DNA of 59,510 nucleotides, the filler included, from Rhizaria sp. SCN 62-66 (Eukaryota), in the NCBI GenBank assembly GCA_001724265.1. It is 2 parts of 2 records of this genome, joined end to end, with 100 filler letters (N's around TTAATTAATTAA, not from the genome) between each part and the next. Parts side by side here need not be neighbours in the genome. Positions count along the whole stretch, not along the records: positions 1 to 28,404 come from MEDY01000388.1; positions 28,505 to 59,510 come from MEDY01000389.1. One strand, written 5' to 3'. The notes beneath the pieces are model-generated. The model did no database searches. It was not told the DNA's origin and saw only the letters and a program-made list of their open reading frames with translations. Both the position numbers and the translations under genes were made by a program. This document shows positions 18,293 to 53,983 of this stretch, one piece after another. How positions within the stretch are numbered: the stretch's first letter is position 1; every line of letters begins with the position of its first letter.

Positions 18293-19606
18293 TCACCGGT
18301 CAGCGGGTTCCCAGCCCTCGCGCAGCAGCGCCGCGGCCACGGCCCCGCGCCGCTGCAGCCACCCGGGGCCCTCGAACCACAGCGTGACAGCGCGCGCCGT
18401 GTCGCTCCGGCCGCCACAGCCGCTGTTAGCGTTGATGTTGCTGCTGCGGGTGTGTTGCTGCCTAGCATTGGTGTCCGCAAAGGTTGAGGTACTGTCCTCG
18501 TGACTGCTCGCATAGTGAATGTGGCTGTGTGCGCGGAGCGAGTCCTCCCAGTCGTTGCCCGCGTTGAGATCGAAGTCAAGCCGCCCGTCGTCCTCCTGCT
18601 CTGCATTCGTGTCCGTAGCGTTCGCAGCACTCGCGTCGGAAATGAGGGCGTCGATTTTCTGGGCAGCGTGAACGTCCTGGCCTGTGCCGCTCTCGGGCGG
18701 CGGCTGCAGCCTCCAGTCGGCCCCGACAGCCGCCCGCAGCAGCTGCTGCAGCTCGGCCTGCGTCTGCGCCTCCGTAGGTTGTGCCTCTGCAGGCTGCGCC
18801 TCCGCAGGCTGCGACTCAGCGGGCTGTGGTGGTGGCAGCGCGGCAGCGGGCGCGAGCGTGGCCCGCCAGGCCAGCCCGCGGGGGTCGTCCTCGAGCAGCA
18901 CGCTCAGGCAGTGGCGGGGAAACAGCGGCAGCCCCGCCCCGCGGCCCACGCTGGAGCTAGAGCTAGAGCTGGAGCTGGAGCTGGAGAGCGGGAAAGGGAC
19001 GACGAGCGAGTGCGGGGGCCCGAAGGCAGCGTAGTGTTCCCGCTCGCTCAGCCGCTGCAACTGCTGCTGCTGCTGTGGGGTCTCGGCTCGGCGGCGCCGG
19101 TCCGCGCGCGAGAGGCGGTCCGGCCACTCGATGAGCGCGCAGTCGCTGGCAAACACGGCGGGCAGGTCCAGCACTGCGGCCTCGCGCAGCCCCGCCACGC
19201 GGTACAGATCAATGTGATGCAGGCGGCGGCCCGCGTGCACGTAGGTCGTGTCAAGTGTGAAGGTCGGCGAGGCCACGGGCAGCGCGGGCAGCCCCGTGAA
19301 GGCGCGCACGAAGGCCCGCGCGAACACCGTCTTGCCGACGCCCAGGTCGCCGTACAGCAGCACCGCGGCCCCCGGCGCCGCTGAGGCCGCGGCGACGGCG
19401 CGCGCAATCGCGGACGTGGCATCCGGCGACGGCGCGCGCAGGTACAGCGCGCCGTACGCGCCGGGGCTCGCCGCTGCGCTGCTGTCAGGCGGAGCGCCGC
19501 TGGAGCCCGAGCTGGCGCTGGCAGCGGAGAAGAGGCGTACGGAGCGGCTTGGCTACGGCGCTGCACGGTGCACGAGAGCCAGAGCGCGCCGGGAGCGGAA
19601 TAACAT
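18293..19606 (-). CDS. tsaE: TsaE (YjeE)-family P-loop ATPase with predicted mitochondrial presequence; in-frame TAG at codon 18
   Basis: TsaE motifs LYGDLGVGKT, VASPTFTL, HIDLYR and LIEWPDRL. The only in-frame ATG is at 19606 (MLFRSRRALALVHRAAP-TAG-PSRSVRLFS). TAG at 19553-19555, stop TGA. About 437 aa if TAG is decoded. Confidence 0.85.
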
Positions 19607-20358
19607 GTTGAGTCTCGATGCGCTCGTTGCAAAACTAAGTTCGACAGAGAGCTGATTGGCTGCCTCTGAGACACAGGAGCACCAAGGGCGCGGGTGGACT
19701 CGTTGTCGGGTGACTGCTGCTGAGTGGAATCATTTTTTAGCGTAATGGAACAGAAACAAGATTTTTAAAAAAAAAAATTATGGTTGGTAATATTAACATT
19801 GTTGTTTGATACAATAGTAGAGCTATAGACGTATTTACGATCAAACTCGCGAGACACACTCTTCCGGGTTTTTGCTCATTTCGACCGATTGAGCGAAGCG
19901 ACGAAAGCCGCTGCAAGTGTACGTTCCCGTTCCAGCACCTTTCGTGCTAATACAAATCAATAACATCTAGATTCGTTGATATTTTGCGTTGTGTGATACA
20001 TTAATGTTAAAAATATATTTGCATTGGAAACGATGAAGAAAAATTCCTTTATTATTGTTGTACGTCTCATACGAATAAACACAGCAATGTGTGGAACGTA
20101 ACAGTGCGTTGTCGCTACTGCTCGCGTTCAGATGAGTTTCGATCTCTTTCAGTTGCAGTGCGTGTGCAAGGCAGCACGCTACGTCAGAAATTAACTCGTA
20201 ATAAATAATTTTCGATAAAAACCGCAATAAATAACTCTAAGTAAAGTTCTCAATACAAAAAACGACATCAGTTCGGTCGTTACACAGAATCGTTCGTTGC
20301 TTGCTCACAGTCCGTCACACTCGCTCACAGTCGTGCACAGTCGCAGGCGGTCGCTCGC

Positions 20359-22591
20359 TCAGTCGTCCGAGTCCGGCACCTGGGTGCGGTAGCCGAAATC
20401 CGCCTCCCCACGCGGGGTCGGGTTGGAACTTGCGCTCTGGCCGACACCCGCCCCCGAGCCCGAGTCCGTCACCGCAGCGCGCTTGCCCGCCAGCCAGGCG
20501 GTGCGGGCCCGCGCCTGCCCCCAGAGGCCCCTGGCGGCGCTGGCGACGGCGCGCGCGTCCTGCCTGGCCGCGCGGCCGACGGCGCCGGGCGCAAGTCGGA
20601 GGTCATGCGCCAGCCCCGCCGCCGTCATGTCGCTGCGCAGCCGCGCCTCGTCGCTCGAGTGCAGCAGCACGAGCAACGAGATGGTCGCGGCGGCGACGGC
20701 GATGCAGATGGCGCCCATCTGCGCCGTGGCGCCGATGAGCGAGGCCGTGCCGAACATGAGGAACTGGCCGAGCCCGCGCATCGCCACGGCCGTCGCGACG
20801 CCGCCAGGCACCAGCGCCGCCTCGTACTGCAGCGAGATCGCCGGGTTGAGCGAGTTGGCGGCCAGCGCGTCGATGACGCCGTGCAGCACGGCCAGCCCCA
20901 CGCACAGCGTCCACGCGCGGCCGCCGCCCGCGACGGCGACCCAGTCCGCGCCCGTGGGGTCGAGCCCGATGATGAGGCCGAGAGAGAGCGCCTGCAGCGC
21001 CAGGTACCCGCCCATGGCGAGCCGGCACGCGCGCAGCGTGACCATGTAGCGCCCCAGCACGTTCGAGCACAGCGCTGAGGTCGTCGCGAAGAGGATCACC
21101 ACCACGGGCACGTTGGCAGATGTCAGCAGAGCCTTGCCAACGCGCGCGGACACGCAGCCTGCGAGAACAAAGGGAAGCGCAAAAGAAGTAAACATAATTA
21201 TGAGATATGGTATAGTGCTGGATATCATTATTAAGAGATAAATTTAATATGACACAAATAAAAATACAACTTCCAACTCAGAACCTCAATATCTCCTCGA
21301 GAAGTGTCCATGATGTCGAGATATACACATAAAGCTTGAGATGTTACGTACTAGAGAAGAAGCCACCGGACATGCCGGCCGAGATGAGGATGGGGACGAG
21401 GTGCCAGGTCACGCGGCGGCGCGCCACGGCCGCCACGCGCGCCATGGCCGCCGCGAGAATCGCGCGCACGTCCTTCTTGGCCGGCGCGGCGGCGACCGCG
21501 GCGGCGCCAGTGTTGCTTGTCACTGTGAGCGTGGTGGGCCCGGTGACGGAGACGTCGCCACTTCCGTCCTTGTTGTTGTGGCCGAGGCGCAGAGCGAGCT
21601 CGGGCCCGTCGAGGGCGCTCAGGTCCCCCTGCCTCTGCCCCTCGCCGGAGCTAGCCGCGGTCGCAGCGGGCACTGCGGGCACCGCGGGCGCTATAGGCGC
21701 TGTAGGGGCGGGGCGGACGAGGGCGCGGAAGCGGCGGAGGAGGAGGAAGACAAGGTTGCCGGCCGCGGAGAGCACGGTGAAGACGAAGAAAAGCAACGCG
21801 ATGGTGCTCTGGGGGATGTCTCTGTCGTTACCGCTCAGCATGCCCAGCGCCACGACGCTGCCGCACACGGACGTCAGCATCTTTTGGGATATGTTGCGGG
21901 TACGCAAAGAGAAATCAAGAAAAAGATAAACATTGAGTGAATTATGATATACCTACGAGAATTTTTAAGTCTCATCATTGAATTGTGATTATTTAATAAG
22001 AAAAGCAAACCATTGAAAAAAAATGCAAGTCTGGCAGCAAGCGTGCGTGCATGCTGACTGCGAGTCTACTCCTGAGGGCTGGACGTACCATGGTGGACCA
22101 GGCGACGCCGATCATCTTGGCCAGCACGCGGCTCGACAGCGAGCCCGTTGCGGGCGCAGGCGCGGCGGCAGCGGCGGCGGGAGCAGCGGCGGGCCTGCTG
22201 ATGTCGGCGGCCGAGTTGACCCGGGAGCGGCGCCCACTGGCGCTGGCGCTGGCGCTGCTGTCAGTGCGGCGGCGGCCGGAGAGAGAGACTGAGTAGGCGC
22301 GGCTGCGGCCAGCGTCATGACGAGCCTCCGCAGCATCTGTCTCGGCCTCGGCCCCAGCGTCAGCCTCCGCAGCGGCAGCCTCGGCCTCGGCCTCCTCAGC
22401 CTCAGCCCCAGCATCAGCATCGGCGTCAGCGTCGTTGCTGTTGTTGTTGCTGTTGTAGGGCGCCGCGAGCGGCAGCGGCTGCGTGTGGAGCAGCGAGAGG
22501 CTGGCGGGCGACAGTAGCGGCGTGCCCCCGCCCGTCGCGAGCGAGAGCGCCGCCGCCACGGACGCGGCCCGCGCGCGCCCCACCACCACCA

Positions 22592-22636
<45 letters not shown>

Positions 22637-24575
22637 GGCCACCAACGACCGGTGAGCTGGCCCCGGTCGCGCCGGCGCCGGCCAGGAGCACGCCCCCGTC
22701 GAGCGGCGGCAGCGCGTCGGCGCCGCCCAGCCCCGCCAGTGCCGCGCTGCCGGCGCCGGCGCTTTGCGGGGGCGCGGCGGCGGGGAGAAGGAAGGGCGTG
22801 GCGCCGCCGGCGTCGAAGCCGCCGAAGGCGACGGCGTCCTCGGGCCGCTGCGGCAGCGGCAGCAGCACCAGCACCTGCGGCGGCTGCTGCTGTTGCAGAG
22901 ACTGGGGGGTGACGGGCGTGCCGGGGGCGGCCGCGGGGACGGCGATGGGCGTGCCGCCCAGCGGCGCGGTCGCCAACGCGAGCGACAGAGCGGCCGCCGC
23001 GGCCTGGGGCTGCGCGGCGACGGCGACAGTGGCCACCAGCCCCGCGGGCGTGGCCGCCACGACCGGCGTGCCGGGGGGCAGGAAGCCCACCGAGCCGGAG
23101 CCGGGGCCGGGGACGAAGGAGCTGGAGCCGGGGCCCGCGGCGGCCGAGGCTGAGTGCGGCGGCAGCGGCGGCAGCGGCGGCAGCGGCAGCGGCAGGAAGT
23201 TCGCGTTGCTGCTGTTGTTGTTGTCTGCGTTGATGGTTGTGTCCGCAGCGTATGCCTCGGCGAGCGCGGTGACCTGCGAGAGCGCAGAGGCGACCTCGGC
23301 GGCCGCGTATCCGCCCACCCCCGCCGCCGAGACCGCGATCTCGGCGCCCGCGCCCGCAGAGGAGGGCTCCGCGTCGTCGTCGGCGTGCTGCGCCGCGGCG
23401 CCGGCGACCGCGTCACTGTCGTCACCGCCATCACGACCGTGGCCGTGGCCGTGGCGGTAGCCGTGGGTCTTGCTCTCGGCAGCGTTGTCCGTGGTGGCGG
23501 TGAGCTGGGGCGCGTGGTACGAGTGGTCCTCGCGGATGGCGTGCAGACGGGGCACCAACAGCACGGCGCCGCTGTCGACGTGGCCGCCGCCGCCGCCGCT
23601 GCTGCTGCTGTTGTTGCTGTTGTTGCTTGCGTTGTTGTACGCGACCAAGTCGGTGTCGTCGGTCGCCAAGAAGGCGGGTGCGTTGGACGGCAGCGTGACC
23701 GTGACCGCAATGGAACCCGCGTTGGCGTCGGCGTCAGCAGCAGCATCGGCAGCGGCAGCAGTTGCAAAGCCAGGGACAGCAGCAGACCCGCCAGCCGCGG
23801 CGCTATCGGCGCCGTTGCTATTGTTGTAAGCGATGAACGCGACGGCGCCCTCGGTGAGCGCGGGCAGCGGGTCGTCGGGCTGGGGGAAGGCCGCGCGCGC
23901 GACGGCGGCGTCGACCAGCGAGCGAGCGATGTGGCCCGACAAACGGGACAGGAAGATGCCCTGCGCGACCCACAGGAAGCCACCGCCGAGCCCGACGATG
24001 AAGGCAGCCGGGATGACGACCGGGTAGGTGCCGGCGATCATGCTGGCGATGAAGAGCGTGTAGGTGACGGAGCCGAGCAGGAGCGACAGCGTGGCGTCGC
24101 CGTCCAGCAGCGCCTCGATCCAGGCGGGCGCCGTGAAGTTCGAGGGCACAAAGGCGACGTAGAGCACGGCCAGGGACAGCGAGCCGAGGTCCTTGTAGAG
24201 CGTGGCGCCGAGGTTCTGGACGATGTTGTACGACACGAAAAGCAGGAAGAAGGCAGTGTTAAGCACCCAGAACGGGAGGAAGGGCGCTGAAAAGATCGAA
24301 AAATCGATATCTGCCTCGTTGATCTCGGGTGCAGTGACCACAATCACGCGCACGCCCTGCTGCTGTGACAAGACCGCAGGCGCGGGCGCGGGCGCAGCGG
24401 ATGAAGACGCGGGGTCTTGGGACTGGCCGCCGTTGTCGGCAGAATGGTATTGTGATGAGCTCCATGAGCGCGGGCGCAGCGCGGGACTAGGACGGCCGCG
24501 CGCTTTGCTACCGGAGTCGCCCGGCAGGGACGAGAGCGCGGGGCTATCGCGGCTCCCAGGGCCGCGGGGCCGCAT
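20359..24575 (-). CDS. UNC-93-like MFS membrane protein (~1271 aa, 3 exons)
   Basis: Exons 24575-22089, 21880-21352, 21158-20359 (both introns GTACGT...AG, frame preserved). N-terminal UNC-93 pattern: FFLLFVSYNIVQNL...LGSLSLAVLY...GLGGGFLWVAQGIFLS. Further TM helices lie in exons 2-3. Confidence 0.85.
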
Positions 24576-25870
24576 TCTGTAAAGCTACAAAGAGTGACGC
24601 GAAATGCCAGACCCAGCATCGATAAATAGATTTGAAAGCGGGTAAGATGAGCAATGCAACAAATATAAAAGCAGTAAAACATAGAATAGCTCATGTTCTA
24701 TCGGAATCACAACGTCATATGCACTTTAACGATCATCCTGGTGAGAATTTGAAGCGCGCATAATCGGTCGCCCTGTCGCTACTTGTTTTTGCCACGCACC
24801 GTCCGAGAACCGAAACCATCACAAAAAGTTGTGTTCAACAGAATTTTATATTCTGTCGCAAAATACCACGACATAATGGGCTAGAAACGGTCCACTTTTA
24901 GTTTATCTACACAATCACACATGTTTTTATTGCTGCTCAGGGATTCTATTTAGTACACGTGTTTATTTCATCGACATCTCACAATATTAGAGTACGAAAC
25001 TGGCACTTGAAGAAGGTTTGAATAGAACATATCCTGTAATACCGCACAGGAACGCTATTAAAGCAAGAACAAACCCATGTTTTAGCATGGAAATTTTATT
25101 TCCAACGTAATTTATGTCATGACATGACATATTTGGCGTAACCTCAAGTGTATAGAATATGTCACCATCAAACTCACACCTAAGAATCAGACTCCTGCAA
25201 GACAAAGGCTTCCAAGAAATTTAAGATTAGATAAATTGTTATTTAATATTATTATATTTTTTTTATTAAAAACTGCTTTATTAAAAGAATAATAGCAAAG
25301 AAAATTTCGAAAGAAGTGTTTAAAATAAATATTAACAATTTGATTTATATATTATTGCAATACAATTTTTGTTGTTTGTATACTCCTCTGTATATGACTT
25401 ACAATAAAAAAAGTTTAAACTAATAAAACGACAGAAATATTATAGTAGCTAATTACCTTGCAATTATAAATTAAGTTAAAGCTATGTATAATCAAATAAT
25501 ATTATTTTAACAATTTTACTTTCATTCAATACGCATTTTAAATAATATTATTAAATTTAAGTGTTATGACAATAATTAATTCTTTTTAGACATGTAATAT
25601 TAATAAACATTTTATAAATGAATACAATTGCATGATTTATTAATTTTACGTCATTGGGATCAGTGATTTGACTGGCTGATTGAGCAACTTTATGGTGCAA
25701 CTTGGCGTTGCAATACCTTCTCCACTGATCCGTTGATAGACATTTATGTACGCTTATCACACGTTACGTTTCGTATTTGTTATGTTGCTTTATTTATAGA
25801 CGTCTAATCCATTACTGTGTAGCAGAAACTGAGTGAGCATTAACGTCCTTGCCACCCGTTTGTTGCCGCA

Positions 25871-26251
25871 ATGTCGGTGCCAAATTACGCTATGGCTGAA
25901 CGCAATGGCTTTGTCTACGTGCGTATTGAAACGTATGACTTTGATGACATTAAGAAATGGTACGATTTAAACTTGGTATTGACGGTTCATAGCTCGGTTA
26001 ACGCCTTCCCGATCACATTTTCTCTCCACTGTTCCGCCAACCACAACTGATCTTTCGATAACTTTCACCTTTCAACCGCACCTTTAACGTATAGGATGCC
26101 TTTTATCTCGTGGTCCGGCTCGTACGTAGAGTCGTGCCCGATGCGCACGACGTTTGTGGCGAATGCGGACTACAAATACGCCATCATCGCAACGCTTCAG
26201 ACTAAGGGCTACAGTGAGCACTTGCATCCTTTCCTCATCGCCGCTTTCTGA
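25871..26251 (+). CDS. Small two-exon hypothetical protein (81 aa), absent from the ORF track
   Basis: Exon 25871-25959, intron GTACGA...TAG 25960-26094, exon 26095-26251. Product: MSVPNYAMAERNGFVYVRIETYDFDDIKKWMPFISWSGSYVESCPMRTTFVANADYKYAIIATLQTKGYSEHLHPFLIAAF-TGA. Confidence 0.6.
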
Positions 26252-26611
26252 CCTGTTGATAAAGCGCACAAGCAGAGTGATGTGAAATTAAAAGAGGGTT
26301 TATTGTGACATTCGTTCTTCGTCTGTTCTTTGCCGGGCCGTTCTTACACTGACCAGGGTCAGATACTTTCGCTATAAATACAAGACATGTTATAACATAA
26401 CAAAACAGGTAACAAGAGAGAGAGATAATATAAGTAAGATTCCTGGCTGCTCCATTCACAAACGACGCGCAGCGCAGCATAATTACATAGGAGGCGAAAA
26501 AAATTACATTTTAAAAAGAAGAGGAGGACTACGTAAGACGTAATACGGAACAGTAAAGCAAGAGGAGATCATCAACAAGGGTGTCTCATAGACGGCGAGC
26601 TAGTTGTCGGC

Positions 26612-28404: not shown

Positions 28405-28504
28405 NNNNNNNNNNNNNNNNNNNNNNNNNNNNNNNNNNNNNNNNNNNNTTAATTAATTAANNNNNNNNNNNNNNNNNNNNNNNNNNNNNNNNNNNNNNNN
28501 NNNN
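28405..28504. other. Assembly spacer N44-TTAATTAATTAA-N44 (artificial six-frame-stop contig linker)
   Basis: Exactly 100 nt and symmetric. The central 12-mer places stops in all six frames. Confidence 0.97.
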
Positions 28505-28656
28505 GCCGCCGCTGCCGCCGCTGCCGCCTCCGCCTCCACCGCTGCGCCCGGCCGCCGCGGCCCTGGCGCCGCTGCCGGCACCATGGGCGCGACGGGCCTT
28601 GGCGGCAACGCCGCTGCCCGCGCGCCCCGTGGCGCCGCTGCTGCCGCCGCCGCTGC

Positions 28657-28687
<31 letters not shown>

Positions 28688-31600
28688 GCGCAGTCGTCCT
28701 CTGCTGCAGCCGCGGGCTCTGCGCGCGCAGACCCGCGCCTGGGCGCCGCGCACGTGACGCTGACCGCACCCGCGCGGTGCGAGGCGCGGCTGCCGGTGCT
28801 GCAGACGGCGGCGGACCTGCTCTGCGGCCGCGCCGGCACGCCCTCGGCCGTGGGCCCCCGCGCGGGCGCCGCCGCGGCCGTGCTGTGCTCCGTCGCGGGC
28901 ATCGCGCGCGCGCGTTCGCTGCAGGGCTCCGCCGCCGCGGGCGCCGCCATGGCCGTGCTACTGTCTGCGCTCGCGCAACGCGCCGGCGCCGCGCGCGCGT
29001 TGCTTGAGGCCCAGACTGCGGGCGTCGTCGCGGGCGGCCACGCCATCGCGGGCGCCGGCGCGGGCCCCGCGGCTGCGGCGTCGGTCGTGGGCGCGACGGC
29101 GCACCCCGTCGCCGCGGCCGCGGGCGGGCGCCTCGCGCTGCTGGCGGCCGCCGCCCTGGCCGACGCCGGCACCGTGTGCGGCGGCGACCTCTCCGCGCTG
29201 GGCGCCGCGCTTCTGGCCGTGGCGCGCGCGCGCAGCGACGTGCTGGCCGCGGGCGCGGGCGAGGCCATGACGGCCACCGAGGCGCAACTCTTTGCGCTCG
29301 CCGCCGCCGCGGCCGACACGGCGGCCGAGCTCGCGGGCGACGTCGACGGCGACGACGACGAGGACGCGGCCGCCGCTGCCGCTGATGCTGCGATCGCGGC
29401 CGCCGCCGCTGCCGACGCCGACAGCGAGGGTCTCGCGCCCTCTGACGCCGCCAGCTTCCATGCCGCGAACAATGCCTCCGCTGGCGGCGCTGCTGCGAAC
29501 GCTGCGCCTATGGACGCGACGACTGTGGCCACGGCTGCCGTCAAGAGCGTGTCCTCCAAGCCCGTCTCCGCGGGCGCCCTCTCTGCTCGCGTGCCGGGCC
29601 CTCTGCTGTGGCACGCGCTGGCCGCGGCCGCGCCCCCGCTGCTGCGCTCGCACCTGACGGCCCGCCTGTCGCTCTCCGCGTCCCCCGGTGCCGGACTTAC
29701 GGTCACGCTCCCGGTTCCACTGCCGACGCGCCGACGCCGCCCGGGGTCCGCGTTGTTGGCGCCGTCCGCCGCCGAGGCCGAGGCCGCCGCAGCGGGCGTC
29801 GCGTCGTCACCGCTCACGCTCTCGCTGCCGCTGGCCGCGCTGCCGGGCCTCTATGCCGTCGACGCCGCCTACGCCAACGCGCCGCGCCTCGGTTCGGGCG
29901 CGGCCGACAGCGCCGCCGCCGCCAGCGGCACCGACGCGCTCGCGCGCAGGCTGGCGGGCGCGCTTGTTGCCGGCCGCCGTGCCCCGCGCCGCGCGCTGCT
30001 GACGGTGAGCCCGCCCATAGCGCTGGCCACCGCGGCCGCCATTTCCCCCGCCGCGGCCGCCGCCGCGTGGGCCGCCGCCACCGCGCTCGCCGCCGGCGCG
30101 CCGCTGCCTGCGCCCGGCGGTGGCGGCGCGGCCCAGGGTCGCGGGAACGCCGCCGCAGCCGCTGCCGCCGCAGCCGCCGCGGCCGCCGCGGCGTCGCTGT
30201 CGGCGGCACCCGCGTCCGCGCGCGCGCTGGTGGTGCCCGAGTCGCTCCCAGCCGCGGGCACGCGCTTCGTGACCGTGGCCGCGCGCTCGCTCACCGCCGC
30301 GGCCCCCGCTGCGGGCGCCGTCGTGCCCTACTCGTCGCCCTCGTCCTCTTCTGCGTCCGCGGCGTCGCTGTCGGCGGCGGCGTTCGGCGGCGCGGTGGTG
30401 CCCGACTGCGGCGCGCAGTTCCGCCTCACGCTCTGCCTGCCCGCGGACGCCGTCGACGCCGAGTACGACGCCGTGGCCGACGCCGCGGTGCCCGAGGGCT
30501 TCGTCCCCGTCGCCGCCGCCACGGTGCCCGCGCACTGGCGTGCGCTCATCAAGATGCCCTCGGCCGCCCCAGCCGCGGGCGCTGGCACAGGCGGCAGCGC
30601 GCCCGCGCGCATAGGCAGCAGCAGCGGCCCGCGCGACCCCGCGGCCTCGGCCGCCGCCGTCGCCATCACGAGTGGCGCGCCCTGGTGGCAGGTCCTGTCG
30701 ACTGCGATCGCGGCCAACCTCAGCGCCATCGCGCGCGCTGAGGGCGACGCGGCCGCGGCCTTTACGCCGCTGTCGCCTGCCGCCGTCGCCGCGCTTGCGG
30801 CCGCGCACTCAGGCGCGGGCGGCGCGCTGGGCGCCCCCGCGCGCGCGCTGGTGACGCAGGTGCGCGTGCAGGCCGAGGCCGCGCAGCAGGAGCAGCAGCG
30901 CGCGCAGCGCGAGCAGCAGCTCCAGCAGCAGCTGCAGCAACAGCAGCAGCAACAACAGCAGCACGGCGCCGCGCGCGGGCCCGGCACACCCGACAGCTCG
31001 CTCTCTCGCTCGCGCACCGGCTCCTCCAACGGCCGCTCCCGCGCCGCCGCGGNCCCGCGCCGCCGCGGGCGCCCGCGCGCGCACCCCGTCGCCCGCGCCC
31101 GCCGCGGCGTCGGCCTCGGCAGCGTCCCCGGCCGTGGCCGCCGCGTGCGTGCCGCTGTCGGCCGTGGCGCCCGCCGCGGCCGCCGCGCTTCCCGACGCCG
31201 CATGGCTGCGGCCGCTGGTGTACCCCGCGGGCGCCACGGCGGCCGCGCAGGACTCGCTCTCGGGCTGCGCGCTGCCGCCCGCGCTCGAGGAGGCCGCGGT
31301 CGAGTCCGCCATTGCGCTCGCCACCGCGGCCGCCGCGCCGCTAGGTGCGTTGGTGTCGCCGCTGGGCGTCGGGCACGCCGCGGGCGCCAACGCCAACGCG
31401 GGCGGCAAGCGCGGCAAGAAGCCCGCCAACGCCGGCGCCGGCGCCGGCGCTGCTGCCGGCGCGGCCGCGGGCGCTGATGGCGCCCAGGCTGCGGGCTCCG
31501 CGCCCGCCAGCGCCGGCTCCAGCACGAGCTCCGCGGTGCATACGCCGCAGCAGGGCGTGCGCGGCGCGCCGCGCGGTGTCGCCGCGACCGCCGCCGCGGC

Positions 31601-33761
31601 TGCTGCTGCTGCCGCCGCCGCTGCGGCTGCGGCCTCGAGCAGCGGGTTCGTGATGCCCGGGCTGCCCGTGGCGGCGCCCTCGGCGGCGACGGTGTGCGCG
31701 GCCACGAGCGACCCCGCGCGCGGCGGCGTGTTTATCACCGCGCCGCTGGCCGCCGCAGCCGCCGCGGGACTGCTGCTGACGCCCTCGCAGACGTTTGCGC
31801 TGACAGTCACGCCCGTGCTCGCGGCGCTGAGCGCGATGCAGGAGCAGCAACAGCTGGCACTCGCGCAGCAGCAGCACGCGCTGCAGCAGCCGCAGCAGCC
31901 GCAGCACGTCCACCACAACAGCTCCGGCGGCGCCGGCGCGAACGCGGCCGGTGGCAACGCCGCTGCCGGCGCGAACGCCGCTGCCGGCGCCGCTGCGGGC
32001 TCTGGCGCCCCAGCTGGCAGTGCGGGCGAGAAGCCTCTGCAGGCTTCTCAGTCGCTGTCATCGACGGGCCCGCTGTCCCCGTCGGGCGGCGCCGTCCCGG
32101 TCGCCCCGGGCGCGGGCGCGGTCGTGCACACAGTTCTGGGCTTCCTCTGCCCGCCGCTGGACGCCTTCACGCCGCTGCCGCCCGCGCCGTCGGTCCCGTC
32201 CACCGCGCCCTCGGCGGGCCCCGTGCCCGCGCCGCTGCTCGCACGCTGGCTGGCTGCCGTCGGCCTCACCGAGGACCAGTGGCGCGCCGCCAACACGCGC
32301 GTCGCGCCGGGTGCGCTCTCGCTCGCGCAGGCCTACAGCGTCGCCGCCACCGCCACGGGCCTGCCGCCGCTGCCCGCGCGCCCCGTGCCCGTGCTGCCCG
32401 CCACCGCGCAGGCGGGCGCCGCGGGGGCCGGTACGAGCGCCGGTGCCGCGGGCGCGGCCAACGCGGCGCTGCAAGCGCAGGCGCTGGCCGCCGCGCAGGC
32501 CGCAGTTGCCGCCGAGGCCGCTGCCGCCGCGCTGGGCTTCGTCGCCGGCTCCGTGCTGCACCCGCCGCAGTCCGCTGCCGCGCTCGCGCTTGCCGCCGCG
32601 GCGGCCGCGCCCGCACCGCCCGCCGCTCCCGGCGCTGCGCCGCAGTCACTGGCGTCCGCGACAATGACGCAGCTGCTGTCGCAGCCGCTGCTGACATCGT
32701 CGCTGGCGTCGTCCGCGGGCGCGCTGATGCTGCACCCGGCCCTGGCGCGCGCGCTGGCGGCGCTGCCGGTGCCGGATCCGACCGCGGTGACGGGCGGCGC
32801 GAGCGCGGCGATCGACGCGGGCCTCGGGCTCGGGCTCGGGCTGGCCTCGGTCCAGCAGGCCGCGCTCGAGGCCGTCGCGGCCGGGCTCGTCGCGCACAGC
32901 GACACGCCCGTGCCCACGCTACCCGCGCACGTCGCCGCCTCGCCCGTCGCGGCCGCGCTCTGGTCCGTGCTCTTCGCGCCGCCGCAGCCGCTGCCCGCGC
33001 CCCCGGCCGCGCCCATCAAGGGCGCCGGTGGCGCGGGCGCAGCGGGCGCCGGCGCTGGCGCTGGTTCCGGCAGCGCGAGCGTGATGTCGCCGAACGCCGC
33101 CGCAGCCGCAGCCGCCGCGACCCCCGCGGCCGCGGCCGCCGCCGCCGCGGCGCAGCTGGCCGTGTGCCGATCTGCGCTGGCGACTCACGAGCGCTTGCGC
33201 GGGTGGTTGCTGTGCGCGGGCCCGCTGGCAACGCTGCCGCTGGCCGGCGCCGTGGTGACCGCGCAGCTGCTCTCTGCCTCGGGCCACCCCGTGCCCGGCT
33301 GCATCGCTGAGCTGCCGCTCACGCTCACGCAGAGCCCCTTCGCGCCGGGCGCCGTCCCCGCGGGCCCGCCCGCCGTTACCGGCACGCCCGCCGCGGTGGT
33401 CCACTTCCCCGCCGCGCCCTCCGCCGCCGCCGCCGCTGCGACCGCGAGTGACAACGGCGCTGCGCCTGCCGCGGCCGCGGCGTCCGAGTCGCCCGTGGCC
33501 GTGGTCAGCGCGACGGCGACGGGCCTGGCGCTGGGCCTTGGCATGGGCCTCGCGCTCGACGGGACCATCGCGCCCGGCGTCGAGGGCGCGGAGTCCGCGC
33601 TCGCGATCGCCGCGGCCAACGCCAGCGGCGGCAGCCTCGCCGCGGCCGCGGGCGCCAACAGGAAGGGCAAGGCCGGGCCGGTCGCGGCCGGCGGGCCCAA
33701 CGGCGCCAACACGGCCAATGCGGGTGCGGGCGCCGGTGGCTCCTGGGGCATCGGTATCTAA
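28505..33761 (+). CDS. Large Ala-rich hypothetical protein, 5' truncated by gap; apparent frameshift at 31053 is an assembly artefact
   Basis: ORFs 28583-31477 and 31134-33761 join into one frame if the N at 31053 and one copy of the flanking duplicated 15-mer CCCGCGCCGCCGCGG (31038-31052 = 31054-31068) are removed. Stop TAA. Confidence 0.75.
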
Positions 33762-38682: not shown

Positions 38683-38717
<35 letters not shown>

Positions 38718-39347: not shown

Positions 39348-39380
<33 letters not shown>

Positions 39381-42300: not shown

Positions 42301-42647
42301 GCGGAGGCGGCATGGAGGCGGGCGGAGGACGGGGACCCTGGAGTCGCTGATGATGAAGCGGGGAAGGGCGCGGACGCGGTGAGCGTCGACGGCGGGGGCG
42401 CGGTGAGCTCGGCCGCGAGCGCGGCAAGCCCGGCCGGGGTCAGCGGGACGGAGGGAGCTGCGACACCAGTCGCGGCGGGCGCACCAGGAGCAGAGGCGTT
42501 AGAGGTGAAGAATGCAGACTGAGAGGAGGAGGACGAGGGGGAGGCGATAGACAGAGCGACGCGGTTGGGGCGCGCCATCGAGAGGCGGTCAGGGCCGTAG
42601 ACTACGGGAGCCGGCGCGGTAGCCGCAGGCGGCGCGGAAGGGTCCAT
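34092..42647 (-). CDS. Giant single-exon low-complexity protein (~2851 aa) with a degenerate EF-hand-like helical domain
   Basis: 8.5 kb uninterrupted ORF, first ATG at 42647 (MDPSAPP), stop TAA. Ordered segment at ~40310-40825. Confidence 0.8.
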
Positions 42648-43338
42648 GGGGTGGGGACGCACGCCACGAGCAGAGGTCAACTAGTCCGTTTCTGAGCTCT
42701 GTTCTGAAGGGAGCGAGAGTACTAGGAAGAAAGGCTTCTGGAAATATTTCAAAGTTAACACGGTAGAGTTAGTTAGCTTTGTTCATGAAACTAATGACAA
42801 CACTAACTTTGACGATCGGACTAGTGTGACATAGACGGGTGAATTAAGGCTTTCAGGGCGGTCTCCGTTGGACCGTGTTCTCAAAAATGGCGGCAGCTGA
42901 CGTGGTTTGTGTAGAAATCGGGAATAGTCATCGTAACACCTGTGAAGGTTGTACAGTGAATTCAGTTATTGTTCGCGTTTTTTGAAGACACTTTTAACCG
43001 AATTTTATTATAACTTTTGCTCAAAGTCTGAGAATCAGAGTGTATTTCCGCATGCACTTTTCTCAGCTTCACCGAGTGATTGCGTTGAACAACCGTCTCC
43101 TCCCAGGCCCCGAGCTCACCCCACATCGTCTTATTTTTGAAACTACACGTCTTGTACAGATTGTTATACATTTTAAAGTGGCTGTGATCTTTGCCGCAGT
43201 TCGTTTCACGCTTCCCTTCGCTCGCTGCGCGCTCTGAGGTACCCGCTCGTCGCACCTCCAACCGCCCGCGTCGCCTGCGTTCCTCTCGCTCGCCGCGTCC
43301 CCCCGCTTTCGCGCGCCGCCCTGACTTCCCTCACCGCG

Positions 43339-44700: not shown

Positions 44701-45411
44701 GCTACGTGTTCTCGTTGGTGTGGATGGATGTGGGCGACATCGTTGCGCCGCATCACAGGACTTGCAACGATACAACATTGGATTGCGATTGCTGAACGCG
44801 GAGAGGCCGTTGGTTGACTCGCAGCTGTGAGCGTGCGACGATACTTGATTGTACATTATTATTGCACTCGGGCCACGAGTACTCTTTCAGAAGCAAATAC
44901 AAAGTCAACTATTTTTCTACAATCGGTGTTATATATCTCGAAAACGCTTGTTTTTGAGTGCTGGTGACGCTTTTATGACGAAACGTAATGCCTTGGACTG
45001 GTAGCGCAGAGCAATTGGTCCAAGTTCGCGCCCTTGGGCCACTTATACACAAACATAAATAACTATGTGATGAGTCCGTGTAATGAAAATGGATTGGAAT
45101 GTGAAAATTTCAAACGTACTTTTCTTTCAATAACTTGTAATGATTTTTTAACTGCCTCTTGGTATCACGTAGTATATCTGTCTTCTTTCTTCGGCCCCAC
45201 TCACAGCGCAATCTTGCTTCAATCCCTCCTTCTCCGCCACTCCACAGCCCTGCTCTCGTATCCCCAACCAACTAGACTACTACAGGTCACCAATTTTTTT
45301 TATTGCGCATTGGTTGGTCGAACAACCCTGCGCCACTCCGCAGTCTCCCTATCAGACTGACTGCTGCCTGAACCGCACGCTTTCTCTTCTCGCTGGTCAG
45401 TCACCGCCACG

Positions 45412-48400: not shown

Positions 48401-50106
48401 AGGCCGTGTTCAAGCTGCTTTCGCGCGTCGCCTTCGACCTCAACCTGCCGGGCATGTTGTTCCACTTCACCGTCATGGTGCTCGCCGACGATGTGCTCAA
48501 CGAGCCGCTCGCGCGCAAGCACCCGCCGCTGTACCGCGCGCACGACTTCTGCAAGCGCATCGCCACGGCCTTCATTACTGCCACCGCGCGCAACGAGCTG
48601 CTGTACGTCGAGGCCACGTCGTGGTGCAGCGCACGCACCGCCGAGTACATCGCGGACCCGCTTGAGTGGGCCAAGAACCACATGGACCAGATCGATGACC
48701 TGTTCGGTGGCGAAGACGACGGGTCCGGCGCCGGCGGCGACGCCGCGGCTGCGGCCGAGGCCGAGATCGCGCGCAAGCACGGCGAGGAGGCCGCGGACGA
48801 CTTCCGCGTCTGGCTCGCCGAGCGCAAGGAGAAGGAGCAAGCCGACAAAAGCAGTAGCAGCAGCAGCGGCGGCAGCAGCAGTGGAAGTGGTTACGGGCGC
48901 AGCAGTGGCGGTCGCGGCGGCTATGACGATGACGACGATGACGACAATGCCGATATCCGCGCACTCCTCGAAGCGCGCCGCGGCGCAAGCCGCTCCGCGC
49001 GCGCCAGCACCCGCGGCATGGCGAGTGCCATCAGCGGCGCGGGCAGTAGTAGCTCGAACCCGCATGCAAGCGCGCTGGCGTTCAGTCTGGGTCGCTCGCG
49101 CCGCAGCCTCGGCGACGACGACGACGACGCCGAGGACGTGGCCGACCTTAAGGACGCGATGAAGACCGCTGCGGCGGCCGCGGCGGCGCAAAAAGCGAAG
49201 CGCGAGGCCGACAAGGCCGCCAAGGAGGCCAAAGTGCGCGAGCGCGAGGAGAAGAAGGCCGCGCGCGAGGCCGCGAAGGAGCAGAAGAAGGCGGCGCGCA
49301 AGGGCAAGAAGGGCAAGAACAGCTACGACGGCGACAGCGAGAGCGAGAGCGCCGCGGACGACGACGGCGACAACAGCGACAACGACGATGAGGACGACGA
49401 TGACGGCGATGACGATGACGCTGCCGATGGGGCTGCTGCGAATGAAGGCGATGAGGCCAAGTCTGCTGACGCTGGTGACAAGAAAAGTGACGGCAACGAT
49501 GACGACGCTGCGGCTGATGCTTCTGATAAGAAGGCGAAGAAGAGCAAGGACAAGAAAGATAAAAAGGACAAGAAGAAGGACAAGAAGGACAAAAAGGCTT
49601 CCTCTTCTTCGTCTTCCGCCTCAGCGCACGCCGACGACAACGGCGACAGCAGAGACGACGCCAGAGACAGCGATGCCGACACGGGCGACAAGAGTGACGC
49701 GGCTGAGTCCGACGTTGACGACGGCGAGGGCGTGAGCGCGTTCGAGCTCGCCATCCTCTCCAAAGCCAAGGCCATCAAGGCTGGCGCCAAAGCCGACGCC
49801 GCGGCGGCCAAGGCCGACAAGGCCGCGGGCAAGCACGGCGGCGTCAAGTCCCCGACGCCCAAGGACGGCGCGGGCGGCCGCGACAAGCGCCGCCGCACTG
49901 TTTCTTACAGCGCCGACGACGACGATGCCAACGCTGCCGGTGGGGACGACGACGGCAAGGAGGGCAAGAGCAGCGCGCCGGCGCGGCGCCGTGTCAGCGC
50001 TCTCGACGACGGCGATGACGATGACGGCGACAACGATGCGAAGGAGGATAGCAAGCCCGTGGTTGTGACCAAGCGGCGCATCATTGCCGACGATGATGAT
50101 GAGTAA
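45412..50106 (+). CDS. TIMELESS: Timeless/Tof1/Swi1 replication fork protection protein (1564 aa)
   Basis: N-terminal pattern FMLGPKGMSCLRAIDAALDEDD...LGVW...VPVL...LLQILIRLTAP and LLFFRNLL. Later block FIRELAQPQIVRQYV...YRTNSDLMNEAVFKLLSRVAFDL...MLFH. Acidic/basic tail. Confidence 0.88.
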   Translation: MPPRARKPNSTVVEDLEEEDAGHVFEMDEAELQSQIEDLFAFVNGIGTTPTDSAGAGVFMLGPKGMSCLRAIDAALDEDDAKRQPLHARLGVWSFSAKRAVPVLLAYRDKPDVIFALLQILIRLTAPLAPTLEAGAVERVRHQQQTKLAFANKDLVMILLSLLEAPVLSWQEKGFAGMSDADKDMLDIVLLFFRNLLVVVDPSDAVDASARLHDRFLLALSRGGFFSLLLWLTQISNANAAAAAEAAARSGRASAGPIDHFALLLMEITFNVFRNEAPEDFFGPLAGTGPVAAAAITDGSSPSKPSSSSASASASAAAAPGTSTASSGFAGVSRAGSFAAAAAAVVAKNPAAARALPAGAGGRGMRVTLVAPGPAGARRVASLSDVIQNKVTNKDAQLAEKIGGRDVKLARGRRFYYSEAVRDALRSFALALLRPEAGNAAAAAAEERGGAGALAAVAAASLGAGLSFITGQQNTMNAFMLHCHKQIQRTMTEATVEERAHSAHTAKGVLFLAALFTGLAREHYDDLRAQHDRSTEPARKAWAAKRRAEEVAAARARGTSESDVKKIEARKDFGRPADLPPSPRYSLAPVSALCENEMYAFAMRMAYDAFDAKPVVWGGIESAIAFVHELVRTTYTALSAGDAETQAAAATMRGNLLHLKEHLDLIIKAVKFFDGTKTGLGHRVHLMVTVHYLIKIMESMGDEAFEIKGKEKDYKTTVRKTKKQVNADAAGITLDDDDDDNVEDDDKNDDDDDDGDDSDEEKSSDSASARRVRAEDDDDDDDDKDDEEEGVGGEPLTAGSKSAGARRRMLDDDDDDEDDDDGNDRASASLSSVSARADADADADAGADENKADDGGSSSKSSSAAASPANAAGADEAFVNVADNADKDEDDGENSKDSINDLSAMAREITEQAAAKAAAKVQARADKEAAAAAKKAATAAKRAELAGTELVVETRRMRKGVSWHAVDFIRELAQPQIVRQYVEAAEQYRTNSDLMNEAVFKLLSRVAFDLNLPGMLFHFTVMVLADDVLNEPLARKHPPLYRAHDFCKRIATAFITATARNELLYVEATSWCSARTAEYIADPLEWAKNHMDQIDDLFGGEDDGSGAGGDAAAAAEAEIARKHGEEAADDFRVWLAERKEKEQADKSSSSSSGGSSSGSGYGRSSGGRGGYDDDDDDDNADIRALLEARRGASRSARASTRGMASAISGAGSSSSNPHASALAFSLGRSRRSLGDDDDDAEDVADLKDAMKTAAAAAAAQKAKREADKAAKEAKVREREEKKAAREAAKEQKKAARKGKKGKNSYDGDSESESAADDDGDNSDNDDEDDDDGDDDDAADGAAANEGDEAKSADAGDKKSDGNDDDAAADASDKKAKKSKDKKDKKDKKKDKKDKKASSSSSSASAHADDNGDSRDDARDSDADTGDKSDAAESDVDDGEGVSAFELAILSKAKAIKAGAKADAAAAKADKAAGKHGGVKSPTPKDGAGGRDKRRRTVSYSADDDDANAAGGDDDGKEGKSSAPARRRVSALDDGDDDDGDNDAKEDSKPVVVTKRRIIADDDDE

Positions 50107-50714
50107 GTCACGCGTCGGTTGAGTGATCTGTTGTCAGTTACTGTCACTCTTTGTGGTGCTGTCACAATTGCTCCTATTTTTACTTATTTACCCTAGTATG
50201 ATGACTTGAAAGTTTGTTTTGTGAGATGAAAAATGATGTAAGCTTATGTGTTAAATACATTATTATCTCGCAAGTGCAAGCGACAACTCCTCGTTACCGG
50301 CTAGTTTGAAGTGATTCTTTGTGTATTTTGTTTCACAGTGTGGTGTTTGTTAACAACAACAAGTACATTTAAGACGGTAATCTAATTTGTCCATGTTCAA
50401 ATCGAAAAGCAGCATAGCTGTAGCAGCTACTACAAGGAATCAATAGTAACGCATACAGTGCTGAAGTGTTGGCTCAAAAACAGAGTGGCTAAGAAAGCTT
50501 GTTTTCAAGTCCAGGTCACGCCCTCGGTGTTCTGACCACGCAAATGCTCACAACTGTCACTGTACAATCGTACTACTTATGATGTCGTACTAAGTCACTG
50601 CCATGAGAAAAGCACGTGCGTGAAAGAGAAACCAAGGCTATACAAGTCAAGGAGATATGCGCTCTCCGTCAAGCAACCACTGGACATCGGTCGGTGCGCG
50701 TTGTAATTGCTTAC

Positions 50715-51965
50715 TTACGCCTTGATGTCGACACCGCGCTTCCAGAGCGTCTCGAAGTGCTTGACGTAGGGCGCGACAACGACGGGGATGTTGGTGCAGA
50801 TGACGTTCTCCTGGTTGCCGCTCGAGGCCGCGCGCGACCAGTTGAAGGAGCCCGAGATGACAAACTTGCCGTCGACGATGGCGTACTTGTGGTGCATGAG
50901 GAACTCGGACGAGTCGTGGCGCGTCGCGATGCCCGTCTTGGCCAGCGGGATGACGTCGGAGCCGGGCTCGTTCATGGTGGTCTTCTCAGTCATAAAGCGC
51001 ACCTTGACGCCCTTGAGGTGCAGCCCCTCGAGCGCGTTGAACGTGCGGTCGTCCGTCATGGTGAACACGGCAACCTCGAGCGTGCGCGTGGCAGACTTGA
51101 TGTAGTTGATGAACTTGTCGTACGAGAACTGCTCCGGGTTGTTGGGGTCGTTGGGGAAGAAGATCACGTCCGAGATGGGCTGGGCCGCGTTGTAGTCGAG
51201 GTTCAGGGGCTCGAACGCGGGCGCCTGCAGCTTCGCGCCGCCGGCAGCCAGCGCGTTGTTGTCGCGCACCATGGGCGCGGAGGAGTGGATCAGGCCCTCG
51301 ATTTTCTTCTGCAGCTTCTCCAGGTCGGCGTCGGCGCCGATGGCGGTGACGAGAGCGGCCTTGTCGGCGCCGCGGGGGACCTCAATCTCGCAGTTGAACT
51401 CCTTCTCCAGCTCCTTAAGCGTCGCGCCCTTGGGACCGATGATGGCGCCAAACGAGCCCTGGTCGATCTTGAAGCCGACGGTAACGAGGGGCGAGGTCGA
51501 GAGCTTGAGGCCCGTCTTGGCCTCGGCCTCGGCGCGCCACGCGGCGACGCCGGCGTCGGGGCCCTGGACCGTAATCAGCGGGTCGTTGTCGCCCTGGGGA
51601 GGGATACGCGCACGCACGCCGTGCTTCTCCTGCATGTTCTTGGCGACGGAGCCGCCAGCGCCGACGAGGGCGCCGTGCTGCTTGGGGGGCAGCCAGAACT
51701 GGTGCACGTCCTTGGGCAGCGACGCGGCCGGGGCGGGGGTGCTCATGGCCTTAGCAGGGGCAGCGGCAGCAGCAGCAGGCTTCTCGGCAGGCTTGGCAGC
51801 AGCAGCAGCGGGGGCAGCGGCGGCGGCGGCAGGCTTGGCGGCAGGGGCGGCGGCGGCAGCGGCGGGCTTAGCAGCAGCGGTCGACGCGGGCTTCTGCTGG
51901 GGGGAGTTGGCGGGCTTGGAGTTCTTAGGCTTGTTGTTGTCACCACCGCAAGGAGTATTGCCCAT
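50715..51965 (-). CDS. Fusion of two KH domains and a PLD6/Zucchini/Nuc-type single-HKD phospholipase D/nuclease domain (416 aa)
   Basis: KH1 HGALVGAGGSVAKNMQEKHGVRARIP and KH2 FGAIIGPKGATLKELEKEFNCEIEVP. PLD core MHHKYAIVDGKFVISGSFNWS...NQEN. N-terminus MGNTPCGG. Confidence 0.9.
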   Translation of the reverse strand: MGNTPCGGDNNKPKNSKPANSPQQKPASTAAAKPAAAAAAPAAKPAAAAAAPAAAAAKPAEKPAAAAAAPAKAMSTPAPAASLPKDVHQFWLPPKQHGALVGAGGSVAKNMQEKHGVRARIPPQGDNDPLITVQGPDAGVAAWRAEAEAKTGLKLSTSPLVTVGFKIDQGSFGAIIGPKGATLKELEKEFNCEIEVPRGADKAALVTAIGADADLEKLQKKIEGLIHSSAPMVRDNNALAAGGAKLQAPAFEPLNLDYNAAQPISDVIFFPNDPNNPEQFSYDKFINYIKSATRTLEVAVFTMTDDRTFNALEGLHLKGVKVRFMTEKTTMNEPGSDVIPLAKTGIATRHDSSEFLMHHKYAIVDGKFVISGSFNWSRAASSGNQENVICTNIPVVVAPYVKHFETLWKRGVDIKA

Positions 51966-52473
51966 GCTTGAAAGTGAGAATCACTGCGCAACAAAGAGAA
52001 AAAAGGAGTCAAGGGAGTGGTCGAATCTGTGAGTTGGCTGTTTAAATGGTTTCATCTCTACCATGCGTGACAAACGCAACAGAAATGCATCACATAAATA
52101 GTGAATATACAAACATCTTCATTTATTCCAAATATGTTTAAATCAGTCCACTTAACTGTCACTACGTCCCACACACAGAACATAATGAAGATGCGTGTTT
52201 CGTCAGCACTCCATTTCGCCTCGTGTCGCTAAACTGTCCACGCATTTATCGGTCCACGAACTTTTATTCGCAATGTACGTAAAGGCAATGTAACTTGATT
52301 GAACATGTTTAACTCAGCAAAAAAATCGTGTATTTATGTTCTCTGGCCCTGTGTCAAACTTGAATTAACCACAGGCCCCCTCATCACCAACGCGCATATC
52401 ACTCATATTGGTATTGGTATCCCCCTCCATTGTTGCAGTCTGCAGTCCGACAAACTGACGCCGTTGCTGATGT

Positions 52474-53983
52474 TCACCTGTTGCTGCCTGTGTCTCCGGA
52501 ATCCGCCGCGGCCGCCCTGGCCAGCGCCCCCAGCGGCGCCATCTCCACCTCCTGCCCCGCACCACCACCGCCGCCGCCTCCTCTCGCCGCGCTGGAGTGG
52601 TCCGCGTCCATCCCTGAGCCGGAGCTTGACCGCCCCAGCGCAACCTCGGTGCCCGCGAACGCGTCATGCTGCTGCTGCGCGGCCGACCCCGCCGCGACGT
52701 GCGTGCCCTGCTGCGCTGCGCCCGCCGAGTGCCGCTCCTGCCCCTCCGGCACCGCGCCCAGCGCGAGCCCGCCGCCGCCCGCAGTCTGACTGCCACCGCT
52801 GCCGCCGCGTCTGTTATTATCCTGCACTTGCACGGGAGCCTGCAGGTGCAGGAAGCCGCGGCCGTCGCCCGCACCGTCGTACCCGTCGCCCGCGGCGTCG
52901 CTGCCGCCGCCGAAGAGCCGCTGCCACAGCGACCTCTTTGGCTGAGCATTCGCGTTGCTGTTGTTGCTGTTGTTGCGGGGATTCGCGGGCAGGCCGCTGC
53001 GGTCCCTGGTCGTGGCGAGCGAGGCCCCGCGACCGCGCGCGTAGTACTGCACGCGGTCCGCGTCCTCGTCCTCCTCGGCGGCGGCCGCGGCGGCCTCGGC
53101 GGCGGCGGCGCGGCGGCGGCGGCGGCGCGCGGCGGCTTGATGCTCCCGGCGCAGCGCGGCGTGGCGCTAGCTCAGCAGCGCGTCCATGTCGCCCTCCAGG
53201 TCGCCCGCAGCGTCGATGTCGTAGTCGGGCGAGACGACGCCGAAGTGCTCGACCTGAGGCGGGTCAGAAAAGATGGGGCAGAGATGAAGATCGTAACAAG
53301 AGAAAGATGGCATAGTGAGTTACGATTGAGAGAGATATACAACGAAGATATTTGACATTAGAATAACAATATGATTGTTATTGCTAATAAATATACAATA
53401 TAACAATTATTTAAACATAATAAATAATACTCTTAAAAATTATCAAGAACTACAAAGGTTAAGACCAGTCTATCTGTTGTTTAGAAGAAATGAGACGCAC
53501 CTGAAAGCGGTCTGTCTTGGCCTTGACAAGAGACCGAATGGCAAAGAAACCGACAAGGAACTCGATGACGCAGAAGGCGGCGTAGATGGCGCCAAACGCG
53601 CGGTCGATGGGCAGCAGCGGGTACTGGATGGCCATCATCCACACGCAGTGGATCAGCCCCAGGAAGAAGGTGAGGAAGATGAAGGCGGCCAACTGGGGCA
53701 CGCGCTCCTTGAGGTTGCCCTGCCAGCCGAGATACAGCCGGTAGGGCTCAAGCAGCAGGTAGATAACGTAAAAGATGGGCGTGACAAAGGCAATGCGCCA
53801 CTCGGAGTAGTTGCGGTACTTGTAGATTAGCAGCAGCAGCTGGATCAAGGTGTAGATGATGCTGTAGAAGAAGTTGAAGTACAGCGCCTGGTGCAGCGGC
53901 AGGTTCGACAGCAAGGGAGTGTTGCGCAGCGGCTGTGGGTAGGGCTCATTCACTGGCCGCGTCACATACCGGGGCCACTCCAT
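52474..53983 (-). CDS. TMEM17: TMEM17/TMEM216-family ciliary transition-zone protein; exon 2 has an in-frame TAG followed by ~230 more open codons
   Basis: LSNLPLHQALYFNFFY...EPYRLYLGWQGNLKERVPQL is the Transmemb_17 signature. Exon 53983-53501, intron GTGCGT...CTGAC..CAG, exon from 53253. TAG at 53167-53169 (189 aa if stop); next stop TGA at 52474-52476 (420 aa). Confidence 0.8.

Follow-up and report, generated by a model that had tools for sequence, protein, structure and literature searches.

Introduction

Nuclear genetic codes in which UAG alone has changed its meaning uncouple UAA from UAG and are known from a handful of lineages (PMC5304391, PMC11687900). In exLh, a rhizarian of the Sainouroidea, UAG is read as Leu, with 384 in-frame UAGs in 71 genes found at conserved Leu positions and with UAA (56) and UGA (15) as terminators (PMC5304391). 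In Iotanema spirale (Fornicata) UAG is read as Gln and UAA and UGA are stops, eRF1 carries a T32G change, and a sense UAG was the first downstream stop in 81 of the 574 checked sequences (PMC5304391). Phyllopharyngean ciliates, represented by metagenome-derived genomes of uncultured protists, read UAG as Leu or Gln and have suppressor tRNA(CUA) genes and widespread sense UAG (PMC11687900), and in Blastocrithidia nonstop UAR is read as Glu (PMC12153298). Here we analyse one metagenome-derived stretch of 59.5 kb (59,510 nucleotides (nt), Rhizaria sp. SCN 62-66, GCA_001724265.1), referred to below as the window, in which TMEM17 and a TsaE-family gene each carry a TAG in frame. An original prediction on this DNA had proposed UAG as a rare sense codon and had named exLh (Leu), I. 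spirale (Gln) and the phyllopharyngean ciliates as precedents for a UAG-only code, and these precedents are borne out by the same two reports (PMC5304391, PMC11687900).

The two TAGs belong to two unrelated genes out of about 15, where each stands in frame within coding sequence conserved in orthologs, and from the alignments described below both are judged to be real and to lie inside genuine coding sequence. We lean, by a small measure, towards genome-wide translation of UAG in this organism; the two in-frame UAGs suggest reassignment and do not prove it.

TMEM17 and its C-terminal tail

TMEM17 is encoded on the minus strand in two exons. Exon 1 (53501-53983, -) comprises 161 codons from the ATG at 53983-53981, ends in phase 0 and matches Pfam Transmemb_17 (PF09799) with an E-value of 5.6e-24 and 85.2 bits, above the gathering cut-off of 26. 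It is followed by an AT-rich intron of 247 nt (53254-53500, -; GTGCGT...CAG) and by exon 2 (52474-53253, -), which consists of 28 codons, a TAG, 230 codons and the TGA at 52476-52474. The TAG at 53167-53169 (-) stands where it had been predicted, 28 codons into exon 2, and the next nucleotide is C.

A word-index search identified P0125, the 454-amino-acid (aa) TMEM17 of a relative, which is encoded on a metagenome contig of 11,644 nt. Residues 1-161 of P0125 align without a gap to exon 1 at 70% identity and the exon 2 alignment starts at residue 162, a contiguity (residues 161/162) which confirms the exon junction; as exon 2 picks up at P0125 residue 162, the reading frame through the TAG is correct. 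Within this alignment the TAG faces a Glu, with GDMDALLS-TAG-RHAALRRE in the window set against DDMEALLA-E-RQDALRRD in P0125 (alignment segment DMEALLAERQDALRR). The gene encoding P0125 is without the intron seen in the window gene.

Past the TAG, the 230 codons follow P0125 residues 190-448 colinearly, nearly to both C-termini, and the two tails have in common the non-repetitive blocks SLATTRDRxGLPA (12 of 13 positions identical), PKxSxWxRxFGGG and EVEMAPL. A Smith-Waterman comparison of the tails scored 282, as against 78 +/- 11 for residue shuffles (0 of 500 reached 282), 100 for the reversed sequence, 46-154 for six other low-complexity proteins of the window and at most 214 for block shuffles, and uncorrected BLASTP gave 108 bits (E 5e-32) with 36.6% identity over 279 columns. 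Codon scores, trained on 8,777 codons, were used to compare the six frames of the post-TAG stretch and gave 0.24 for its own frame as against -0.62, -0.79, 0.01, -0.10 and -0.78 for the others, a pattern to which that of TsaE is alike. Fifteen stops in the window follow a good coding signal, and only at the TMEM17 TAG does the same frame keep the best score of the six in the GC-rich sequence beyond. The TGA at 33185-33187 (-) also precedes GC-rich sequence, but its frame loses the best score, and we read that frame as antisense to a plus-strand gene; a variant of the codon score with flanks of 20 codons was too noisy and flagged antisense frames only. The 3' untranslated regions of every other gene are AT-rich, unlike the sequence past the TMEM17 TAG.

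Two other accounts of this stretch were considered and rejected. A separate gene downstream of the TAG would have its first Met at codon 186 of 230, in a frame that is the ortholog of the P0125 tail, and removal of the TAG by splicing conflicts with P0125, which encodes the flanking residues contiguously. We conclude from the alignments that the post-TAG stretch is the conserved C-terminal tail of TMEM17 in this lineage. The length of this tail ranges from 230 to 265 residues in the lineage, and we know of no such tail in animal TMEM17.

The TsaE-family gene

The second in-frame TAG lies in a TsaE-family gene with a lineage-specific C-terminal extension (18293-19606, -), which reads from the ATG at 19606-19604 through 17 codons, the TAG and 419 further codons to the TGA at 18295-18293. 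The TAG (19553-19555, -) is codon 18, is again followed by C, and lies between the ATG and the TsaE domain as had been predicted. The P-loop domain was placed at 19097-19429 (-), coordinates computed from residues 42-152 of the post-TAG frame, which Pfam matches to PF02367 (E 1.1e-24; 87.3 bits, above the gathering cut-off of 26.6) and which contain the P-loop GDLGVGKT. The 419 post-TAG codons include no Met, and the sole in-frame ATG is the one 17 codons upstream of the TAG. Splicing out of the TAG was rejected, as a search of 19400-20400 (-) for GTRCGT, the donor type seen in all seven introns inspected, found none upstream of the TAG and only a single GTACGC downstream of it, at 19540.

A first homolog search with X in place of the TAG gave two distant matches among those listed, low-complexity words having probably interfered, and a full HMMER search gave one outstanding match (E 7.5e-53), P0126, the 370-aa TsaE of a relative. 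P0126 is 46% identical to the window protein over 212 residues of the TsaE domain comparison, and the two have in common a C-terminal block, FEG..W..RR.A....L...GW, the C-terminal parts scoring 128 as against 31 for the reversed control. Before its domain P0126 has a leader of 63 residues after the ATG, rich in Arg, Ala and Ser, and the window gene read through its TAG has a comparable leader of 50 residues with no acidic residue before position 42. Thus, given the leader of P0126 and the common C-terminal extension, the TsaE gene is judged on sequence grounds to be conserved and otherwise intact.

The extension measures about 270 residues (18293-19096), and a second motif in it, PLFPR..LSVL.E.D, is also conserved in P0126. 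TsaE is a t6A factor of bacterial type; the version found here is eukaryotic, begins with a leader that resembles a presequence and is fused to a C-terminal module. The ATG is preceded, at a distance of 49 nt, by a CCAAT motif that may act as a promoter element, and a polyA-RNA contig covers the 3' end (18259-18524), so that at least this end is present in RNA.

The structures of the two genes also bear on an explanation that keeps the standard code and gives each gene a mechanism of its own: a 189-aa TMEM17 would receive its tail through leaky or programmed readthrough, or the tail would be a relic, and in TsaE the ATG...TAG would form a 17-codon upstream open reading frame, with translation of the domain started at a non-AUG codon. 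C directly follows both TAGs, and in eukaryotes stops are at their leakiest before a C; the whole Pfam domain would be retained in a TMEM17 of 189 aa, and in TsaE the codons that precede the TAG have non-coding scores. By eye, the earliest near-cognate start codon in the TsaE frame is a CTG about 53 codons past the TAG, at the edge of the domain, and a leaderless TsaE would differ from P0126 with its 63-residue leader. Moreover, P0125 makes the tail obligatorily, with its Glu codon in one open frame of 454 aa, and the contexts TAG-CCAAGC and TAG-CGCCAC fail the readthrough motifs CARYYA and CUAG, only the C being in agreement. Two unrelated rare mechanisms would also be needed, both of them at TAG. 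We hold this explanation to be quite improbable. Leaky readthrough had been offered as an alternative in the original prediction on the strength of the C after both TAGs; the C is confirmed, and the alternative is weakened by the same contexts and by TsaE, whose short product would be a peptide of only 17 residues.

Termination codons in the window

The genes of the window that could be identified with Pfam encode ALG8, a RhoGEF-PH protein, TsaE, an UNC-93-like transporter, Timeless, a KH+PLD protein, TMEM17 and Bud23, and the remaining genes encode Ala/Gly/Gln-rich low-complexity proteins. Besides TMEM17, 14 genes were modelled, of which nine terminate at TAA, five at TGA and none at TAG. It had been claimed that 16 such genes end in TAA (10) or TGA (6) and never in TAG; the absence of TAG stands and the counts do not, the lower number of genes being due to several claimed genes that are exons of one gene, split by AT-rich introns with GTRCGT donors. 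The long frames at 5197-10192 (+) are exons of one gene, as are those at 20359-24584 (-), and the TAG at 6298-6300 (+) was rejected as terminator of the GC-rich exon 5197-6300, since it is intronic and lies just past a CAG|GTACGT donor.

When the distal TGA of TMEM17 is included, UAA is the commonest terminator (9 of 15), and the stop is followed by G ten times, by A three times, and by C and by T once each, so that 13 of the 15 have a purine at this position. The TGA ends of TsaE, TMEM17 and Bud23 lie only a few residues away from where their orthologs end. For a TAG share of 20% among stops, the chance of finding none in 14 terminators is about 0.04, and for a share of 10% it is about 0.23; in a sample this small the absence is, alone, weak support for UAG as a sense codon. 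The coding context of both TAGs, as shown by the orthologs, is stronger support than the terminator counts.

Codon usage has to be considered together with a further explanation under the standard code, namely that both TAGs are recent nonsense alleles (fixed, polymorphic or heterozygous) which truncate TMEM17 before its tail and inactivate TsaE. The training codons include 230 CAG, 311 GAG, 232 AAG, 202 TCG and 74 TGG, as against 3 CGA and 36 CAA. With NAG codons abundant and CGA and CAA rare, nonsense mutations here would mostly give TAG, and in a genome so rich in G and C at third codon positions (GC3-rich) the observation that both codons are TAG is therefore weak evidence, a point that counts against translation of UAG. 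The Glu (GAR) facing the TMEM17 site in P0125 is one transversion from TAG, both sites lie where truncation would be tolerable or in a possibly dispensable gene, and an intact downstream frame is to be expected if the mutations are recent. In contrast, the population occurs in the runs of six studies, and that about 15 of its genes should include two with a premature stop is improbable (on the order of 1% by our own estimate). Furthermore, no other stop or frameshift occurs in the 419 (TsaE) or 230 (TMEM17) post-TAG codons, conserved motifs are kept in the TMEM17 tail and in the C-terminal extension of TsaE, and TAG terminates no modelled gene. Nonsense alleles thus form a serious alternative, which we nevertheless consider unlikely.

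The TAG sites in the assembly and in sequencing runs

The window sequence is present, wholly or in part, in runs of six studies (2015-2025) of bioreactor and wastewater metagenomes, including RNA libraries. Four of these runs (X3, X4, X5 and X8) were aligned on 5001-25000, an alignment which also took in many low-complexity contigs from other organisms, and from 3 to about 30 single-base differences were listed per run. No variant was listed at 19553-19555 in these four runs, cover at that position not being demonstrated.

These alignments were set against the explanation that the TAGs are absent from the translated mRNA, through faults of assembly or consensus at the two sites, or through editing of the mRNA; A-to-I editing, which turns UAG into UGG, occurs in filamentous fungi. 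The window derives from a metagenome contig with N runs and a frame change at a single N (31053), and read cover of the TAG sites in other runs is not shown. On the other hand, no variant appears at the TsaE TAG in runs for which other single-base differences are listed, it is unlikely that an in-frame TAG arose by error twice independently, and P0125 has Glu, not Trp, at the TMEM17 site. We regard error or editing as very improbable.

The N runs are two of 44 bases each within 28405-28504, in addition to the single N at 31053, near which the large plus-strand gene 28457-33761 changes frame. This change suggests a consensus or scaffolding defect rather than biology.

Decoding of UAG

In favour of translation of UAG we weigh the two sites, the absence of TAG terminators and the weak-termination context, with C after both TAGs as against a purine after 13 of the 15 terminators. 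The proposal that UAG is a rare sense codon is thus upheld as far as the ortholog-supported coding context and the 0 of 14 TAG terminators are concerned, and is limited by its dependence on two sites in one window of 59.5 kb.

Several findings weigh against this reading. There are two sites only, and both lie in poorly conserved regions (a presequence and a tail) that are probably disordered. The leader of the window TsaE scored 36 against that of P0126, with 35 for the reversed control, and so has no similarity to it above that control, and the 17 pre-TAG codons of TsaE have a codon score of -0.24 and are not coding-like. Composition-corrected BLASTP of the TMEM17 tail alone against P0125 gave no alignment, so that the homology of the tails rests on the uncorrected scores and the controls. 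A TMEM17 ending at the TAG would have 189 aa, an ordinary length in the family, and its Pfam domain lies wholly in exon 1. As a sense codon, UAG would be rarer than the rarest ordinary codon, CGA (3 of 8,777 training codons). ARAGORN found no tRNA with a CTA anticodon among 4 tRNAs in the window or among 19 on six related contigs, a sample that comprises only Asp, Glu, Gly and Arg genes. The limit on read cover at the TsaE TAG given above belongs here too, and the TMEM17 TAG lies beyond the 20 kb on which the runs were aligned.

If UAG is translated, it would not act as an efficient terminator in this organism and would be decoded genome-wide by a UAG-reading tRNA, or by near-cognate decoding with weakened recognition by eRF1, a gene for which is absent from the window. 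UAG would then be a very rare sense codon, with 2 occurrences in about 15,800 stop-to-stop codons, and its rarity would fit an early stage following the loss of UAG from terminators.

As for the amino acid, the TMEM17 site faces the Glu of one relative and the TsaE site is unalignable. Glu is thus hinted at by a single aligned ortholog residue, and Gln, whose codon CAG is mutationally close to TAG, is no less plausible. It had been argued that the freedom of the poly-Gln tracts from TAG speaks against Gln; with 2 TAGs in about 15,800 codons this argument carries no weight. Leu had been put forward as a better fit, and the sole hint at the level of residues is the aligned Glu, not Leu. Two related statements of the original prediction hold: neither TAG is at a conserved residue, though that of TMEM17 can be aligned to the Glu of one relative, and the amino acid cannot be fixed from the window, where one site faces that Glu and the leader scores (36 as against 35) leave the TsaE site without an alignment.

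Taken further, these observations could be envisaged as an early stop-codon capture in an uncultured, deep-branching ciliated protist of wastewater and bioreactors, in which UAG has gone from the terminators and is only starting to return in a coding role, for which Glu is a possible meaning, and in which the stops are still UAA and UGA. We put this fuller picture forward tentatively and give it rather less than even credence. If true, a nuclear code with UAG alone as Glu would add a new meaning to those known for this codon and would offer a rare view of a reassignment while it takes place. Gene callers set to the standard code would cut short or overlook such genes as TMEM17 and TsaE here.

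Other features of the window and searches for relatives

Exons of the window have a GC content of about 0.7-0.8, and introns and spacers are AT-rich, with a GC content of about 0.4. All seven introns inspected open with GTACGT or GTGCGT (GT[AG]CGT), are AT-rich, measure 150-260 nt and stand between GC-rich exons, their donors lying at approximately 6292, 7133, 15950, 21340, 22088, 53500 and 54530. The strict GTRCGT donor could act as a signature for the binning of contigs of this organism. The intron of the RhoGEF gene (15951-16113, GTGCGT...CACAG) stays open in frame, and a naive open reading frame gains about 54 false residues from it; in a relative the JGI gene call for Bud23 (P0006) likewise reads through its intron.

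A cluster of tRNA genes, Asp-GTC, Asp-GTC and Glu-CTC, was located by ARAGORN at 57945-59238 (-) and has no CTA anticodon. A metagenome scan with a 72-nt tRNA-Asp gave the six related contigs (L001-L006) mentioned above, which are short tRNA clusters without protein genes, and scans of genome contigs and viral contigs with the same sequence gave 0 matches. Units of Glu-CTC and Asp-GTC, in some cases with Gly-GCC, Arg-ACG or Gly-CCC, recur at several loci in AT-rich DNA. From identical spacing, two pairs among the six clusters are the same locus in two assemblies; L002 and L006 are such a locus, and L004 matches the cluster of the window itself. ARAGORN also placed a tRNA-Ile (GAT) at 31439-31517, inside GC-rich coding sequence, where Rfam gives no support, and this is probably a false positive.

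Bud23 was used to look for relatives. P0006, encoded on a contig with the same length (11,644 nt) as that of P0125, is 77% identical to the Bud23 of the window, and the named matches listed, animals and EukProt-labelled protists alike, are about 48-59% identical and give no placement. A Bud23 scan of genome contigs found five loci, at most 62% identical over a short piece, with no close relative among them, and a scan of viral contigs found nothing. The contig L008 (3,060 nt), binned with a Leptonemataceae metagenome-assembled genome, encodes part of a Bud23, with 62% identity to the window protein, and may be a mis-binned eukaryotic contig. A search for a dispersed repeat specific to the organism returned only GC-rich low-complexity families.

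Relation to described codes

In programmed readthrough a functional short protein is accompanied by an extended isoform in minor amounts. The window genes resemble it in having an in-frame stop, a C after it and then a conserved extension, and differ from it in that TsaE has no functional short form and P0125 encodes the TMEM17 tail without a stop.

As in exLh, UAG occurs in frame within coding sequence and only UAA and UGA serve as bona fide terminators; unlike exLh, the window has 2 UAGs among its roughly 15 genes, the position of neither is conserved, and the alignable site faces Glu. I. spirale likewise has UAG alone affected, with UAA and UGA kept as stops, and differs in that UAG is frequent there and minimal here. 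The phyllopharyngean ciliates are alike in being uncultured protists known from metagenomes, with a UAG-only code and UAA as the preferred stop. In contrast, the GTRCGT introns of 150-260 nt, the multi-gene contig of 59 kb and the GC-rich exons found here are, in our judgement, not ciliate-like.

A ciliate code is reported to read UAG as Glu and UAA as Lys. This ciliate and B. nonstop offer a precedent for Glu at UAG that matches the single aligned residue here, and they differ from the window in that UAA is reassigned there too, whereas UAA is the commonest terminator here (9 of 15). To our knowledge, Glu as the meaning of UAG comes only from codes that reassign UAA as well.

No earlier description of such an organism came up in a search of the literature, supplementary codon tables aside. 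An additional, independent case would be valuable in a protist that does not look like a ciliate, the more so with UAG still extremely rare, and it could show the intermediate state that is debated between the codon-capture and ambiguous-intermediate models. Reassignment of UAG alone is of a known kind, and the present case, if it holds, may add to it both a new assignment and an early stage.

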